Source: Promethearchaeota archaeon (lineage in GTDB: Archaea > Asgardarchaeota > Lokiarchaeia > Sigyniarchaeales > SOKP01). Taken from it: a stretch of 12,162 bases of DNA. Numbering within the stretch: position 1 is the first letter of the stretch; each line of letters starts with the position of its first letter. The translations under genes and the position numbers were made by a program. Location: positions 2,934 to 15,095 of the forward strand of contig JBHLMQ010000065.1 of the NCBI GenBank assembly GCA_048938005.1. Reading direction: 5' to 3'. This document shows positions 1 through 10,961 of the stretch, piece by piece. The notes under the pieces are model-generated. The model had not been told where the DNA came from. It saw nothing but the letters and a program-made list of their open reading frames with translations, and did no database searches.

Positions 1-561
1 GATATTGATCATATCAATAAAGCTAAGGAATTTGTCCGTAGGTTTGTTACGGAATATATGGTTGTAAAACGCCTTGTAAAAAACATTGCTCTAACTACTG
101 ATAAGTATATTAAAGATTTTACCTCCGGACAATATAGTGATTTATTACTTGATTTAAGTGGAACTAGAAAAACTGGCTTGTCTTTAAAAATTAGAGACAA
201 TTTTAATGGAGAATATGAATCAACAGAGGTGCTCTCGGGAGGGGATCGCACTGCTTTAGGAATAGCATTACGTCTTGCAATATCGGAATTAATGAGTTCA
301 ATTAGACCTACAAAAGAATCACCAAAGAGAAATCCAAAAATAGATTTTCTTTTATTAGATGAACCTTTAGCTGCTTTAGATGAAACGCGAAGAGAACGAA
401 TTCTCAAGCATTTAATAAAATTAAAATCATTTTCTCAAATTTTTCTTATAACTCATACTGCCATTCCACAAGATATATATACAACCAAGATAATTGTTGA
501 AAAAGATCTATCCACCGGAATAAGCCGAGCTAGATTTGAAAAACCATTAGTGATGATTTAA
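1..561 (+). CDS. rad50: Rad50/SbcC-family SMC-like ATPase, C-terminal part (5'-truncated by window edge)
   Basis: Frame is open from base 1 (DIDHINKAKEFVRRFVTEYM...). ABC signature LSGGDRTALGIALRLAI, Walker B/D-loop FLLLDEPLAALD and H-loop LITH are present. Could be a Rad50 paralog. Confidence 0.85.
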   Translation, partial: DIDHINKAKEFVRRFVTEYMVVKRLVKNIALTTDKYIKDFTSGQYSDLLLDLSGTRKTGLSLKIRDNFNGEYESTEVLSGGDRTALGIALRLAISELMSSIRPTKESPKRNPKIDFLLLDEPLAALDETRRERILKHLIKLKSFSQIFLITHTAIPQDIYTTKIIVEKDLSTGISRARFEKPLVMI

Positions 562-592
562 TGAATAAAACTATTATTTAGAAATATAAAAT

Positions 593-601
593 AAAAAAAA
601 A
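593..601 (-). terminator. Oligo-T (T9) archaeal-type terminator candidate for the histone gene
   Basis: A9 run on + about 20 nt past the histone stop, in the convergent rad50/histone gap. Confidence 0.45.
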
Positions 602-622
602 GATATTTTTGAGCAAGTGAGT

Positions 623-823
623 TTATAAATCTCTTGCCTTTACTGTCTTTCTATTGTTTCCTTTTGCTCTTCCTACTGCCTTATCTAGCAATTCCATTAT
701 TAAACCATTAAGAGAATCCCCATCAAGGACTCCACTACTCGTATTGCACCCCTTACCTTTAATATATTCCCTTACCTTTGATTTAACAAACAAAGGTTCT
801 GCTTTTGCAGCTTTTTTTGCCAT
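623..823 (-). CDS. Histone-fold protein of the short, alpha3-truncated type (face-to-face / Bd0055-like) with a Lys/Ala N-terminal extension
   Basis: LFVKSKVREYIK alpha1, NTS loop, LLDKAVGRAKGNNRKTVKARDL with the L2 RKTV motif and R-D clamp; the protein ends right after RDL. GAGGA SD-like motif upstream. Confidence 0.88.
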   Translation of the reverse strand: MAKKAAKAEPLFVKSKVREYIKGKGCNTSSGVLDGDSLNGLIMELLDKAVGRAKGNNRKTVKARDL

Positions 824-860
824 TTTAAAATCTTCCTCTTTTAGAATTTTTTTTAAAGAA

Positions 861-870
861 TTTATATAAA
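861..870 (-). promoter_or_regulatory. TATA box candidate for the histone gene
   Basis: TTTATATAAA lies about 38 nt upstream of the ATG at 823, leaving room for a short leader containing GAGGA. Confidence 0.55.
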
Positions 871-1180
871 ATCGGATTTAATATTAAAACAAATTATTTT
901 TTGTTAATTATTATTTTCCTAACTGGATTATTAAATGTTACTGATTTTACCTTAAATTTGTAAATTCATTTTTTTCTTGAGAAAATTGAGGATAGAATTG
1001 ATAATATTAAAATGTTATGAGAATTATTAACAAGAGAATATCTTTCAAAATAATAATACATTAATATACAAACTTCTTCTCTTCCTTCCTAAATGAAAAA
1101 TCATACATGGATTTCTACAACTTTAATATTTTTTAAATGAATTTGTAGTATCAAAATCGATTATTATTTTTTTATATGAG

Positions 1181-1201
1181 AAAAAAAATAAAAAAAAAAA
1201 A
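1181..1201 (-). terminator. Oligo-T terminator candidate downstream of alba
   Basis: T12-A-T8 on the minus strand, about 45 nt after the alba stop. Confidence 0.5.
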
Positions 1202-1247
1202 TAAATTGTGTTATTTTGATTCAGCGAAGAATTGATATTTTCACTGT

Positions 1248-1529
1248 TTATTTTGGAGGTGCAAGTACAATTTCAATGCTTGAAACATTGTTATTTTGCC
1301 CATTTTCTCCTTCAAGCTGTTCTGTGGAAAGTTTAATATCTTTATATTCTGTACCTTTTAAGAATCTATTTCTTAAAATCTCACAAACATCAACAGCATG
1401 AGAGATTGCTCTACCTCTGGCTTTTACTGTGCATTCTTCTCCTTTATTTAGAATCATCATAGTAGCCATAACGTAGTTCATTGTTGGTCTACGTCCAACA
1501 AACACGGCATTTTCTTCTTTGCTTGGCAT
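1248..1529 (-). CDS. albA: DNA/RNA-binding chromatin protein Alba
   Basis: VFVGRRPTMNYV, VKARGRAISHAVDV, LRNRFL and VSSIEIVL are all Alba (Sac10b) hallmarks. GAGGA lies 8 nt before the ATG. Confidence 0.96.
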   Translation of the reverse strand: MPSKEENAVFVGRRPTMNYVMATMMILNKGEECTVKARGRAISHAVDVCEILRNRFLKGTEYKDIKLSTEQLEGENGQNNNVSSIEIVLAPPK

Positions 1530-1594
1530 CTTTAATTTCCTCTTTAGTTGTTAATTTATTATTGTATTTCTTTACTTTTTAGTTAATTTGCGCT

Positions 1595-1646
1595 TGCGTA
1601 TTACGTATTGAAGTTTTAACGTATTTTTGAGTTTAAATTACGTAAT
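1595..1646. promoter_or_regulatory. Cluster of CGTA-core repeats including the perfect palindrome ATTACGTAAT upstream of alba
   Basis: TGCGTAT (1595), TTACGTAT (1601), TAACGTAT (1617) and ATTACGTAAT (1637-1646) in otherwise CG-poor intergenic DNA. Confidence 0.5.
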
Positions 1647-1756
1647 AACATTTTCTTGAAATTTTGGAAATATTTTAAATTTTATTGTCAAATTAATAAA
1701 GAATTTTAATTTTCTGAAATAAATTCATTTAAAAAGAACTTTTTCTCAAAAAATAT

Positions 1757-1765
1757 AAAAAAAAA
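1757..1765 (-). terminator. Oligo-T terminator candidate after the small membrane protein pair
   Basis: T9 on the minus strand about 20 nt after the stop at 1786. Confidence 0.4.
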
Positions 1766-1785
1766 GAAATTTTAATATGAAGAAT

Positions 1786-2016
1786 TCATAATCCTTTCAA
1801 TTTTACAGCAAGAAACATTAGAAACCAAGAGAAAAAGAATACTAATATAGCAATCAACATCCATATTTGGTAAGAGCTTAAACCAAAAAGATAAATTAAA
1901 GGTAATAGAGAAGGAGTCCAAAAGATAGTAAATTGGTCGAGTAAGATGAATAGTCCAAAAACCCATAAAAGGAATGTGATAGATACAATAAATTTACTTG
2001 GGGGTGTCCATGCCAT
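1786..2016 (-). CDS. Small two-TM membrane protein (paralog B)
   Basis: 76 aa with two hydrophobic helices; MAWTPPSKFIV...LKGL shared with its neighbour; GGTGA 7 nt before the ATG. Confidence 0.85.
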   Translation of the reverse strand: MAWTPPSKFIVSITFLLWVFGLFILLDQFTIFWTPSLLPLIYLFGLSSYQIWMLIAILVFFFSWFLMFLAVKLKGL

Positions 2017-3269: not shown

Positions 3270-4103
3270 ATGAATAAATGCAATCTTACTAGGGTTAAGA
3301 ACTTTAAAATGCTTGAGAGAAGTCAGTCATTTGAAATACGAGATAAAAATCATGAAGATATCCAAAGGATTATGGAAAATATCTTAGAAAAAAGATTATC
3401 ATTTTCAACTAATACTAAAAGATTGGGAAGATCTTTACTCAGAATTAACTATTTTGATAATAATCTCGATAAAGAGGCACAAAAAGATAATAGAATTACA
3501 ATTTTACAAGAACCAAAAAAGAGAGTATACATCCAAATAAATGGAAGATTGACTGATACTCAAGTAGAACAATTATGGAATGAGCTTGACAAAAGATTAA
3601 ATAATTATCAGATTACATCAAACTTATCGAAATCTAACCCTTCTAAAGCTGAAATAATTCGGGATATTAAAAGCTTAATTGACGAGAGAGGTTATATTGT
3701 TAGAGATGAAGACGTTCAAGAATTTGTTGAGAATTTTATGAAACAATATGACAGACTACCAAGGGAAGAAGAATTTAATTCAATTGTTAAGGGATACATT
3801 ATAATGGTAAATGAAGAAAAGCTTATTGATATTGTTGATTCAAGTATTATTGAAAGTGAACAGAAAATAGAAAGTTCTGAACCATATTTAGAGCATCCTC
3901 AAACTGATTTATCAATTAGCTCTTATGATGTCAATACTTTATTAAAAAAGGATACAGTTGAGCGTAGGAAATGTCCAAATTGTGGAAATGATGGACTTAT
4001 TCACGAAGTGGATGATAAAAGTGTGATTCTCATGGATTACCCGAAAATTTACGGGAAGAAGAACTGCTGTTCACAATGCGGATTTGAATGGAGATCTCAT
4101 TAG
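3270..4103 (+). CDS. Hypothetical protein with C-terminal C4 Zn-ribbon
   Basis: 277-aa ORF ending in CPNCG...CSQCGFEW. The start may instead be the ATG at 3309. Confidence 0.75.
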   Translation: MNKCNLTRVKNFKMLERSQSFEIRDKNHEDIQRIMENILEKRLSFSTNTKRLGRSLLRINYFDNNLDKEAQKDNRITILQEPKKRVYIQINGRLTDTQVEQLWNELDKRLNNYQITSNLSKSNPSKAEIIRDIKSLIDERGYIVRDEDVQEFVENFMKQYDRLPREEEFNSIVKGYIIMVNEEKLIDIVDSSIIESEQKIESSEPYLEHPQTDLSISSYDVNTLLKKDTVERRKCPNCGNDGLIHEVDDKSVILMDYPKIYGKKNCCSQCGFEWRSH

Positions 4104-8799: not shown

Positions 8800-9001
8800 A
8801 TTTGCACCTTAAATTCTTAATCTGTTATTTATTAATTATAAAATCAAAGAATTGAATAATCGAAAAATTATATTTGTTATTATTTTAGTAATAAGTTAAT
8901 TATCTGATTTAGAAAATAAAAAAAAATTAAGATTCATTAAAGATTTCAATTTTTTGATTTGAAAGAAAAATTAAGAAAAGAATAACAAACTTCAAATCTA
9001 T

Positions 9002-10195
9002 TTAGTTCTTGGTTTTACTTTTCATTATAGGATTTCCTACCAAATCTAACTCACACGAAATCCTTTTTCTTATCCCGTGCACCCTTGCATATTTACTAAC
9101 CTTTACTTGAGGCATGCATGTTTTTAGAATTTCTTCACTAAGTGAAGCGATTTTATTATTAGATAATCCAATAGGAGACCATGTTCTAAGATTACAAATT
9201 GTGTCAGGCAACGTTGTAAGCTCGTTATTTTCTAAATGGAGTAATCCAAGATTTTTAAGATTCCCAATTGAATTAGGAATGGATCTAAGTTTATTATCAT
9301 GGAGAATAAGCTCTTCAAGATATTCTAATTGACCAATAGATTCGGGAAGTTCGGTTAGATTATTGTTTCTTAAATCGAGATGCTGTAAATATTTTAATTG
9401 ATTAATAGATTTTGGTAATCTAGTTAAACCTTTATTAACTATAATGAGTCCGATTATATGATTGCCAAAAATTACATAACTAAATTTGCCTAATTCTCTT
9501 GGTTTAGGTAAATTTTGCCCAAGAGTATAGTTCCATCTAGGAATTTCTCCTAATTCTTTTTCTAATTCTAATATTATCTCTGATTCTTCTTTTATTAAAG
9601 GTTGTCCATGATAGTTAATAAAAGTATAATCTTCAGATTCCTGCCTTTTAAAATGGGATTCTATTAGGTTAATTTCTTTTAGAAATTCTGATTTACGGTC
9701 TTTTTGATGCTTTTCACTTTCTTTTGGAATTGAATCATCATCCCCGAAGTATGTTTTGAAAAACTCTCGAGATTGTTCAGGTGTAAAAGCTCCCTTAAGC
9801 TCTTTCATAATTTCTCTTCTAAGTTTAGGTTGTTTTCTACTCGTTGATGAAGGTTCAGGTTGATACGCTTCCATTCGCGTTCGGAAGTAAAATCTAATAA
9901 TATCAACAATCGCATCAGAATAGTCTGTCCAAATTCCTGATATTATATCTTCATTCAAGCACTCAAGCCAAAAGTTTGGTATTGAGAGAACAATTTTAGT
10001 TCTATTTGTTGATGTGCTTCTTGTAGTGGTAATTGTTACAGGTCTTCCATTCTTATCCCACTGTTTTGCTGCTGAAATTGTACCATAGGAACATTTTTCA
10101 GTTATTACAATCGAAGATTGTTTTTCACCTTTCGCAAGGCGTTCAAGGATACTTTCATATTTTTCTTGATTAATTTTTCTGGTCAAATTGATCAC
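9002..10195 (-). CDS. Multidomain protein: putative N-terminal HTH + ribbon-helix-helix-like domain + C-terminal leucine-rich repeats
   Basis: The LRR part is clear: 4-5 units of 23 aa (LxxLxLxxNxLxxLPxSIGxL), aa ~247-357. HTH-like aa 7-47 (ILERLAKGEKQSSIVITEKCSYGTISAAK) and RHH-like aa 66-105 (KIVLSIP..WLECLNEDIISGIWTDYSDAIVDIIR) are recognised by pattern only. GTG start. Confidence 0.8.
   Translation of the reverse strand: MINLTRKINQEKYESILERLAKGEKQSSIVITEKCSYGTISAAKQWDKNGRPVTITTTRSTSTNRTKIVLSIPNFWLECLNEDIISGIWTDYSDAIVDIIRFYFRTRMEAYQPEPSSTSRKQPKLRREIMKELKGAFTPEQSREFFKTYFGDDDSIPKESEKHQKDRKSEFLKEINLIESHFKRQESEDYTFINYHGQPLIKEESEIILELEKELGEIPRWNYTLGQNLPKPRELGKFSYVIFGNHIIGLIIVNKGLTRLPKSINQLKYLQHLDLRNNNLTELPESIGQLEYLEELILHDNKLRSIPNSIGNLKNLGLLHLENNELTTLPDTICNLRTWSPIGLSNNKIASLSEEILKTCMPQVKVSKYARVHGIRKRISCELDLVGNPIMKSKTKN
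9125..9457 (-). repeat. Leucine-rich repeat coding array (69-bp period)
   Basis: LTRLPKSINQLKYLQHLDLRNNN / LTELPESIGQLEYLEELILHDNK / LRSIPNSIGNLKNLGLLHLENNE / LTTLPDTICNLRTWSPIGLSNNK. Confidence 0.93.
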
Positions 10196-10198
10196 TGT

Positions 10199-10337
10199 TA
10201 CTACTATAAAAATCTTATATATTTAAATCTTTGTAGTAGCATTTTTCATTAAAGTAGTACAATAGTAGTTTATTAAACGAAAAGAAGTAATTTTATCTAA
10301 AAATTGTAACTATTGTTAATAGTAGTGTAATAGTAGA
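10199..10337. promoter_or_regulatory. TAGTAG repeat array / putative operator overlapping the promoter of the HTH-RHH-LRR gene
   Basis: CTACTA 10201; TAGTAG 10234, 10263, 10320 and 10331; AAGTAG 10252. TATA-like TTTAAATATATAA (minus strand, 10215-10227) lies between the inverted pair. Confidence 0.7.
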
Positions 10338-10418
10338 AACATTAAATATAATTTTTTAATAATAAAGAAATCACATTTAAAAGTTTAAATTTTTGAAGAT
10401 GCATAGAAAAAGAAAATT

Positions 10419-10961
10419 TTAATACTCTATTCCATATCGTGCTGTGATTCCTTGCGAGGAATAATAATGTTTTATCATTCTCATTTCAGTTATCAGGTCA
10501 GCCATCTCTTTTATTTTAGGATGCATTTTGGGTCCACCCGTAAGAATTAATTCAACTTTATTTGGTTTATTTTTTATAAGTTCTAAAACTGGTTCAACAG
10601 GTATGACATTCATCGAAATGGCAACACCCACTTCATCAAGAATGATAATATCATATTCATCACTCATTATTATATCTTTAGCAAAAGCTAGTGCTTTTTT
10701 CCCTTCATTTATATCAAACTCATTAGGCTCAGCTATAAGTTCAGGGCTACCAAATTGTTTTAATTCAAAATTGGGAATATTTTTAATAGCTTCTATTTCT
10801 CCGTATTTGTAATTACCTTTCATAAATTGGATCATGTAAACTTTAAAACCATGCCCCGTCGCACGTATCCCTTGCCCTATTGCGGCTGTAGTTTTCCCTT
10901 TACCACGCCCAAAGTAAACTTGAATTAAGCCTTCTTTTAATCTTTTTCTAGGTGAACTCAT
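10419..10961 (-). CDS. cobO: ATP:corrinoid adenosyltransferase (CobO/BtuR/CobA type)
   Basis: GLIQVYFGRGKGKTTAAIG, IQFMKG, YDIIILDE, ELILTG, ADLITEM..IKH and GIEY motifs. Confidence 0.93.
   Translation of the reverse strand: MSSPRKRLKEGLIQVYFGRGKGKTTAAIGQGIRATGHGFKVYMIQFMKGNYKYGEIEAIKNIPNFELKQFGSPELIAEPNEFDINEGKKALAFAKDIIMSDEYDIIILDEVGVAISMNVIPVEPVLELIKNKPNKVELILTGGPKMHPKIKEMADLITEMRMIKHYYSSQGITARYGIEY

Follow-up and report, generated by a model that had tools for sequence, protein, structure and literature searches.

A 12,162-nt stretch of DNA from a Promethearchaeota archaeon of the Lokiarchaeia (assembly GCA_048938005.1, contig JBHLMQ010000065.1, positions 2,934–15,095 of the forward strand), which we refer to in full as the window, carries on its reverse strand a gene whose product combines a predicted helix–turn–helix (HTH), a ribbon–helix–helix-like (RHH-like) module and a solenoid of leucine-rich repeats (LRRs), and which is preceded by a cluster of short repeats arranged around a putative TATA box. 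RHH and HTH autorepressors are textbook regulators, and LRR proteins are unusually numerous in Asgard archaea; we know of no tandem HTH–RHH module joined to an LRR. A 2026 preprint describes the function of the Asgard LRR proteins as unknown. A full-text search of the literature outside subscription-only papers returned no paper on an HTH–RHH–LRR protein, in agreement with the original prediction, made from the window alone, which knew of no characterized protein with this architecture. Here, we describe the gene, its upstream repeats and its relatives, and we argue that its product is probably, though by no means assuredly, a protein that binds specific DNA sequences and controls the gene's own promoter, a reading drawn from structural models and comparative sequence analysis.

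The gene and its upstream repeats

The longest open reading frame (ORF) at the locus (window positions 9002–10195, reverse strand) encodes the 397 amino acids first reported, from a GTG at 10193–10195. In all 24 aligned homologues, however, the N terminus is MTRK or MTRE, three codons inside this frame, where the window has TTG (10184–10186) and, of the 27 other loci read, 25 show ATG and L014 shows ATA. Because the homologues begin at the position of the TTG, which elsewhere is mostly ATG, the product is most likely a 394-residue protein; the reported ORF stands, but its start is most likely further in. Residue numbers given here count from the TTG unless the 397-aa (GTG) frame is named.

The gene is single-copy: a search of its own genome (3,720,495 nt in 101 contigs) gave one match at E ≤ 1 and no paralogue. 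The joining of the N-terminal part to the LRR could have been an assembly chimaera, a possibility raised with the original prediction that we reject because single contigs of two studies span the fusion and because the fusion is conserved among homologues. Window positions 8900–10450 are covered by single contigs of public runs X1 and X2 with 4–5 differences, and a third run bridges 9327–10068, the junction of the N-terminal part and the LRR; the source sample itself may be one of the runs covering the fusion. The runs listed for the stretch include none of RNA, which speaks neither for nor against expression. The N-terminal 200 residues, used in a word-indexed search that covered proteins of 218–695 aa, found 72 homologue clusters (48–89% identity); 68 of these carry LRR Pfam families, and the remaining four are proteins of 226–366 aa whose contigs do not exceed 4,083 nt.

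Upstream of the gene, positions 10201–10336 contain six CTACTAYWA sites, five direct and one inverted, the latter lying between the TATA box and the start codon. The TATA box, the B recognition element (BRE) and a transcription start roughly 25 nt downstream are assigned on what we take to be general archaeal promoter organization. The elements are as follows, with offsets counted from the start of the TATA box.

10328–10336, reverse strand: site S1, CTACTATTA, offset −109
10317–10325, reverse strand: site S2, CTACTATTA, offset −98
10260–10268, reverse strand: site S3, CTACTATTG, offset −41
10249–10257, reverse strand: site S4, CTACTTTAA, offset −30
10231–10239, reverse strand: site S5, CTACTACAA, offset −12, abutting the upstream edge of the TATA box and overlying the expected BRE
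10220–10227, reverse strand: putative TATA box, TTTAAATA, with the start codon 41 nt after its start
10201–10209, reverse strand: site S6, inverted, TTATAGTAG in the sense of the gene, offset +18, downstream of the TATA box and ahead of the expected transcription start

S1/S2 and S3/S4 form direct-repeat pairs, each 11 nt apart. Five of the eight TAGTAG matches of the window fall within the array, and the dense upstream cluster noted in the original prediction proved to be the sole such cluster in the genome: among 1,599 TAGTAG/CTACTA hexamers (0.43 per kb), nowhere else do at least 4 lie within 150 nt. The spaced pair CTACT-N6-CTACT occurs three times in the genome, twice within this array. 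Strain variants seen in runs X6 and X13 (window 10260–10315) fall mostly in the spacers between sites; two touch S3 outside its CTACT core, one (10260 C>T) yielding the consensus CTACTATTA and the other (10263 T>G) altering position 6. Genome searches for a regulon, using inverted pairs across a TATA box and direct pairs 3–9 nt apart, returned the gene's own promoter and a few other places. The three candidates inspected (C63:30149, C97:186145 and C9:34166) were rejected as chance occurrences, since they lie within ORFs or where two genes converge. Scanning the window for Rfam families and tRNAs gave no matches.

Conservation of the layout, family forms and genomic context

Relatives of the N-terminal module were read at 27 further loci, from the 28 other matching genomes, and fall into three forms that share residues 1–134 and the operator layout. 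The long form (390–405 aa) carries the LRR and is found at L001–L008 and L011; it is broken at L010 into two overlapping ORFs of 165 and 267 aa (759–1977, reverse strand) and truncated at L009 to a 137-aa frame (526–972, reverse strand), with the operator array intact at both. The medium form (175–188 aa; L012–L015) ends in a charged, coiled-coil-like tail, and the short form (138–142 aa; L016–L026 and L030) has no LRR. Each genome holds one form, except G199, which has one medium and one short.

The layout was scored in 26 of the 28 loci, window included, that have a TATA-like word by pattern; L005 is included in every count. In these 26 loci the TATA-like word lies at −41 to −44 relative to the start codon, CTACT stands at −12 from it in 23 loci and CTACG at −10 in the other 3, and an inverted AGTAG follows at +18 to +23 in all 26. 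The pair at −41/−30 (or −40/−29) is present in 14 of the 15 long, medium and broken loci, and the distal pair with its 11-nt spacing in 12 of them, whereas the short-form loci have direct sites at −23/−12 (7 of 11) and inverted sites at +8/+20 (9 of 11). L030, which has the variant TTTGAATA and is outside the scoring, has ATAGTAGTA at the same place. Alignment A2 is built without L008, L006, L019, L021, L022, L024 and L025, all seven of which are in the layout scoring. The 20-row upstream alignment shows little or no variation in the CTAC core, the TATA word or TAGTAGTA, and the spacers and the sequence upstream of the array cannot be aligned between forms.

Because this layout is kept although the proteins of the loci that share it are only 57–87% identical over the module, its conservation points to a selective footprint and not to recent common descent. 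The original prediction that the upstream repeats are an operator array gains support from the site positions around the TATA box, which are kept in 26 loci. Furthermore, since LRR-less relatives of roughly 140 and 175 aa keep both the motif and the layout, the CTACT motif appears tied to the shared N-terminal module.

The same comparison bears on the place of the LRR. In a tree of the module, the short forms make one clade (95/100) and the long and medium forms are intermixed and poorly resolved, in a topology that is midpoint-rooted only and has unsettled bootstrap values. Because forms lacking the LRR share the module and the layout, and because long and medium forms intermix in the tree, the comparison indicates that the LRR was added to, or serves as an interchangeable tail of, an HTH–RHH autoregulator complete in itself, in which DNA binding and autoregulation would need no LRR. 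One relative (P0076) ends, by eye, in Cys-rich zinc-ribbon-like motifs instead of an LRR. The combination of HTH–RHH with an LRR recurs in a divergent family of 505–605 aa (P0079, P0081, P0087, P0090 and L028:274–1854, reverse strand), which has an HTH_28 domain, the same RHH-like stretch (36–54% identity), an uncharacterized middle of about 250 aa, a cap and an LRR. The one upstream region of this family that was read, that of the 527-aa L028 protein, contains TATA-like words and no CTACT array.

A 190-aa query, whose failure to match a genome does not prove that the gene is lacking there, finds matches in 29 of 400 genomes of the phylum. All belong to one family, in which 28 of 134 genomes match excluding the gene's own, and two genera hold the matches (18 of 53 and 10 of 42 genomes). 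The surroundings of the gene differ from genome to genome. In the window, a thiolase gene with a ChsH2-type partner carrying an oligonucleotide/oligosaccharide-binding (OB) fold lies downstream, and CobO and DUF169 genes lie upstream; elsewhere, the long form is flanked by a DNA-alkylation repair gene, another LRR gene, ribosomal S12/S7 genes or HpaB. CobO–DUF169 is conserved in most congeners and the opposite side of CobO is variable: at the 29 congener CobO loci read (of 44 matching genomes), different genes stand on the side occupied here by the HTH–RHH–LRR gene, and no thiolase lies within the roughly 1.5 kb read on that side. The thiolase–cobO neighbourhood, which the original prediction had proposed to follow in relatives, is not conserved at these loci. 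The suggestion that the gene is an accessory insertion is fair in its first part, given the patchy distribution and the non-syntenic flanks, but is unsupported in its second, that of an insertion. In one congener, G180, a 133-codon frame without the N-terminal module lies downstream of CobO (L043:2787–3185, forward strand) and corresponds to the final 120 codons of a long form, with 75% identity to residues 275–394 of P0019; its location is broadly that of the window gene, and it is probably what remains of a decayed copy. In the closest relative, G228, the gene lies about 2 kb from CobO, with HpaB between them.

The short form has a more regular setting. At 12 loci it is followed by a same-strand ORF of about 445 aa (incomplete at two loci, which end within it), which in the four scanned is a radical SAM protein with HHH_3 (for example, L016:34–1371, reverse strand, and L017:2057–3391, forward strand), and a gene for a thiamine pyrophosphate (TPP) enzyme is often divergent upstream. 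The gene's own genome has the radical SAM gene (C97:67441–68778, 87% identical) with no short form upstream; only a 210-nt spacer separates it from the TPP-enzyme gene, so that both flanks are kept.

Two further ORFs of the window are recorded here as separate observations. Positions 1248–1529 (reverse strand) encode a 93-aa protein of the Alba chromatin family (Pfam E = 1.1e-16) within a 1.8-kb stretch of small ORFs, and positions 3270–4103 (forward strand) encode a 277-aa protein with no Pfam family and two C-terminal CxxC pairs (CPNCG...CSQCG) that look zinc-ribbon-like by eye.

Domain structure of the protein

Structure models made with AlphaFold2 (AF2), comparison of these with 48,161 Protein Data Bank (PDB) representatives by VIA-align, Foldseek searches and column conservation divide the protein into the following segments, described in terms of the predicted local distance difference test (pLDDT) and of column entropy.

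9002–10186, reverse strand: gene for the HTH–RHH–LRR protein, most likely 394 aa from TTG, stop codon at 9002–9004
10043–10186, reverse strand: predicted three-helix HTH, residues 1–48 (AF2, VIA-align)
10001–10042, reverse strand: Thr/Ser-rich linker, residues 49–62, of low pLDDT and high entropy
9866–10000, reverse strand: RHH-like module, residues 63–107, a strand (TKIVLSIP) followed by two helices
9785–9826, reverse strand: conserved amphipathic helix (LRxEIMKELK), residues 121–134, helical at 121–133 in the AF2 model
9626–9784, reverse strand: variable, charged, partly helical linker, pLDDT below 50
9461–9625, reverse strand: conserved cap (β-hairpin, helix and strand) with the motif YHGxPLIxxE...LExxxGxIPxW (conservation, AF2)
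9005–9460, reverse strand: five to six 23-residue LRRs (LxxLxLxxNxLxxLPxxIxxLxx) (Pfam, AF2, Foldseek)

The HTH and the RHH-like module are the most conserved parts of the protein (column entropies of 0.51 and 0.58 bits). They are separated by the Thr/Ser-rich linker, with an entropy of 1.08 bits and a pLDDT of 58 in block 51–60, and the amphipathic helix marks the end of the module held in common with the LRR-less relatives. The charged linker that follows has the highest entropy of all segments (1.56 bits). The N terminus is uncertain in the full-length model (25 sequences, mean pLDDT 64.8), and residues 1–135 were also modelled on their own (37 rows, mean pLDDT 77.4).

In the model of residues 1–135, the first domain is a bundle of three helices (7–18, 23–30 and 34–45; pLDDT 89–94) with helix–turn–helix geometry, and the region of its recognition helix, CSYGTISAAKQW, is invariant. 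Residues 2–48 match the HTH of Tn3 resolvase (Z 5.8, root-mean-square deviation (rmsd) 2.0 over 46 residues), followed by those of SorC, DeoR, LsrR, small-terminase and Tc3 proteins, so that residues 1–48 are modelled as a resolvase-type three-helix HTH. Among 37 family members, Pfam reports HTH_23 in 10, HTH_28 in 9 (best E = 4.6e-8), HTH_Tnp_1 in 9 and HTH_7 in 7, and the distant relative P0080 reaches 33.4 bits for HTH_28 (cut-off 25); the window protein itself does not reach the gathering threshold of HTH_23, HTH_28 or HTH_7 and has no match to them at E ≤ 1.

The second domain has the β-α-α topology, over some 45 residues, that characterizes the RHH superfamily: an extended segment at 62–69 and helices at 71–83 and 89–106 in the model of residues 1–135, and a strand at 66–70 and helices at 74–85 and 92–107 (GTG frame) in the full-length model. 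Residues 63–111 match the RHH antitoxin ParD2 over 49 of 49 residues (Z 5.0), PrpA (RHH; Z 4.5) and NikR (Z 4.2, rmsd 1.4 over 44 residues), and no RHH family appears among the Pfam matches of the 37 family members at E ≤ 0.1 (among the 25 of 32 families that were listed). Modelled as two copies, residues 55–112 score 0.51 for the interface measure ipSAE, against 0.00 for the best control; in the calibration of this measure, the mark was reached by 20 of 30 proteins whose solved structures are pairs and by 1 of 23 whose solved structures are single chains. Agreement among the three runs extends to at least 93% of contacts (partner pLDDT 74), and the contacts (66–66, 68–64, 63–69 and 96–96) describe an antiparallel ribbon centred on V66 with the second helices packing. 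The module is thus predicted to dimerize through an antiparallel β-ribbon, a dimer model that the original prediction had proposed as a check. Of the two N-terminal DNA-binding-type segments first proposed, the folds are borne out by the AF2 models, VIA-align and the dimer model, but no family profile recognizes them in the window protein.

The C-terminal half is more readily recognized. The original description of 23-aa LRRs preceded by a cap-like segment agrees with strong Pfam matches, with a confident model and with the invariant columns of the cap. LRR_14 (E = 1.7e-15; 57 bits, cut-off 40) and LRR_8 (1.4e-10; 41.2 bits, cut-off 27) cover residues 250–356, LRR_1 (32.4 bits, cut-off 20.6) and LRR_4 (33.3 bits, cut-off 27) also pass, and the repeats can be read from L270, L293 and L316 together with flanking units. 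The cap segment YHGQPLIKEESEIILELEKELGEIP (residues 195–219 of the 397-aa frame) has 12 invariant columns between Y195 and P219 in 25 homologues. In the full-length model, pLDDT is about 90 at YHGQPLIKEESEIILELEKELGEIP, 76–91 for blocks 191–220, 85–96 over the solenoid (residues 241–360) and 76–96 over cap and repeats together (191–360, 397-aa frame). The curved α/β solenoid gives 88 Foldseek matches at E ≤ 0.001, of which all those shown are LRR-containing proteins or complexes. The nearest solved structures are bacterial LRR proteins of Leptospira together with human SHOC2, and Rsu1 and plant SERK ectodomains are also matched; the label 'eukaryote-type' attached to the LRR in the original prediction is too narrow, as the nearest structures include the Leptospira LIC proteins. 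An insertion, CMPQVKVSKYARVHGIRKRISC (window 9062–9127, residues ~357–381 of the 397-aa frame), precedes the last LRR unit, ELDLVGNPI; this lineage-specific insertion occurs in the window protein and in roughly half of the aligned homologues, and the remaining homologues lack it or have a different segment in its place.

To describe variation on the putative binding face of the LRR, we take positions 2, 3, 5, 7 and 8 of repeats 2–4. Their mean entropy is 1.16 bits, against 1.07 bits at other non-scaffold positions, and R276 and E295 (397-aa frame) are invariant. Because the face shows no sign of diversifying change, the LRR seems to fit a conserved partner better than a fast-evolving foreign one.

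Interpretation and relation to known systems

The conserved array over the core promoter, the predicted fold of the N-terminal module and the persistence of both in the LRR-less forms suggest a mechanism for control of the gene's own promoter. Dimers would occupy the CTACTAYWA sites, probably cooperatively and on one face of the helix, because tandem sites 11 nt apart are separated by one helical turn. Bound dimers would exclude TBP/TFB or RNA polymerase, such that the protein would repress its own synthesis. Either the HTH or the RHH-like module may be the reader of CTACT. More tentatively, the capped LRR solenoid may be a protein-binding surface that the lineage added to an older, stand-alone HTH–RHH autoregulator. 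The LRR may couple the binding of a conserved cellular partner to occupancy of the promoter, following one-component logic much as the original prediction proposed with its gating of DNA binding by LRR recognition, or it may instead bring that partner to the DNA.

Several results weigh against a DNA-binding protein that controls its own promoter. The main weakness is that genome pattern scans found no second target for the LRR-bearing form. For the window protein, Pfam and NCBIfam report the LRR and no HTH or RHH; profile A4, made from the module free of the LRR, matches no PDB sequence at E ≤ 10 (profile A3 is dominated by LRR columns); and the N-terminal model has no Foldseek match at E ≤ 0.001. 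The VIA-align Z scores of 4–6 lie in the range that the tool calls common for small helical domains, the passing score of the dimer model may stem from resemblance to RHH dimers already solved, and the promoter-proximal repeat could be bound by a different factor.

That last point can be extended into a distinct explanation, in which the upstream repeats are promoter or leader elements for another factor and the N-terminal module has another nucleic-acid target or none. The sites do overlap core promoter elements that could be conserved for their own reasons, and the link between protein and sites is a predicted one. A general promoter element would be expected to recur, however, whereas the motif clusters nowhere else in 3.72 Mb, and it accompanies the module in different genomic contexts and in the paralogous short forms; we regard this explanation as very unlikely. 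We are also doubtful, if a little less firmly, that the protein is a DNA-tethering adaptor, for which the array would be a unique landing pad, the LRR would link this chromosomal site to a partner (cytoskeletal, membrane or other), and autoregulation would be incidental. The centromere-type arrays bound by the RHH protein ParR (at parC) and by omega (at heptads) are parallels, and the RHH-like dimer module of the model, the 11-nt-spaced repeats on both sides of the gene's own core promoter, the uniqueness of the array in the genome and the protein-binding fold of the C-terminal domain would all suit such a role. We keep this explanation in view because the only visible output of the long form is its own promoter. 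It sits poorly with an array of only six sites and with LRR-less relatives that keep the array without the adaptor domain; no filament gene is adjacent and no ParM/ParA-type partition nucleoside triphosphatase (NTPase) was found in the window or in the scanned loci of relatives, the neighbours being thiolase and CobO here and different in every other lineage.

The matches of relatives to HTH_7, HTH_23, HTH_28 and HTH_Tnp_1 raise the question of whether the gene was left behind by, or regulates, a mobile element or an antitoxin-like cassette, with an HTH taken from a resolvase or transposase domain and repeats that are element-end or antitoxin-operator sites. The patchy distribution, the non-syntenic flanks and the truncated relic in one congener would agree with this, as would the nearest Atlas clusters, which are small viral HTH proteins (scores 0.86–0.91) that we treat as leads only. 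We nonetheless give the idea little credence: the adjacent genes (thiolase and CobO here, unrelated ones at other loci) include no transposase, recombinase or toxin, no terminal inverted repeats bracket the gene, the layout of the sites is promoter-like, and a scan of viral contigs with the module alignment produced 35 pattern matches, none of which was confirmed as a relative. LRRs are also recognition domains in eukaryotic innate immunity, and an accessory, patchily distributed gene could encode an immune-type sensor whose LRR recognizes a viral or other foreign protein and whose DNA-binding part switches transcription. This is the least probable of the alternatives, since the binding face is no more variable than other non-scaffold positions and retains two invariant residues; the protein has no effector domain and no NACHT or NB-ARC NTPase match (Pfam and NCBIfam, E ≤ 1), no defence genes are adjacent and no regulon was found.

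Control of the gene's own promoter by a DNA-binding protein is therefore the reading we prefer. A stronger version, in which the protein would be the first prokaryotic transcription factor with an LRR input and a cellular, symbiont or viral partner protein would switch operator occupancy, strikes us as rather unlikely. Were it true, it would amount to a minimal circuit from recognition receptor to promoter in the archaeal lineage closest to eukaryotes, and the divergent HTH–RHH–X–LRR family of 505–605 aa would operate on the same principle. Modulation of DNA binding by the LRR, should it occur, would add a new input domain to prokaryotic one-component regulation. The family in any case offers a testable activity for one of the many Asgard LRR proteins, having a defined DNA module (about 135 aa of HTH plus RHH, described by no Pfam or NCBIfam model), a 9-nt site with a conserved layout and LRR-less natural controls.

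Comparison with known systems places the parts of the protein in different company. The resemblance to the RHH autorepressors CopG, Arc, MetJ, NikR and the ParD antitoxins lies in a predicted ribbon-dimer β-α-α module and in tandem promoter repeats about one turn apart; unlike them, the window protein has no profile match, carries an HTH before the module and an LRR solenoid after it, and acts, if it does so, at TATA and BRE elements and not at −35/−10 elements. With ParR–parC and omega it would have in common an N-terminal RHH domain, direct repeats flanking its own promoter and a C-terminal protein-binding part, whereas it has no partition NTPase or filament gene nearby, has fewer sites and has an LRR as the partner-binding part. 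The HTH shares the three-helix fold of the resolvase, Tc3 and insertion-sequence (IS) domains (HTH_7, HTH_23 and HTH_28), on whose Pfam models relatives score; the window protein, in contrast, falls below all thresholds and has no catalytic recombinase or transposase domain. SHOC2, Rsu1 and the Leptospira LIC proteins have the same repeat type and fold (Foldseek E of 1e-7 to 1e-5 and 30–46% identity over the repeats, with strong profile matches), but they lack a DNA-binding domain, whereas the window protein has five to six repeats and its own conserved cap. To our knowledge, no characterized prokaryotic regulator has an LRR input domain, and in this respect, with an LRR whose sensing is putative, the protein would stand apart from one-component regulators; like them, it unites within a single polypeptide a predicted DNA-binding module with a putative input domain, and it is encoded by a stand-alone gene that would regulate itself.

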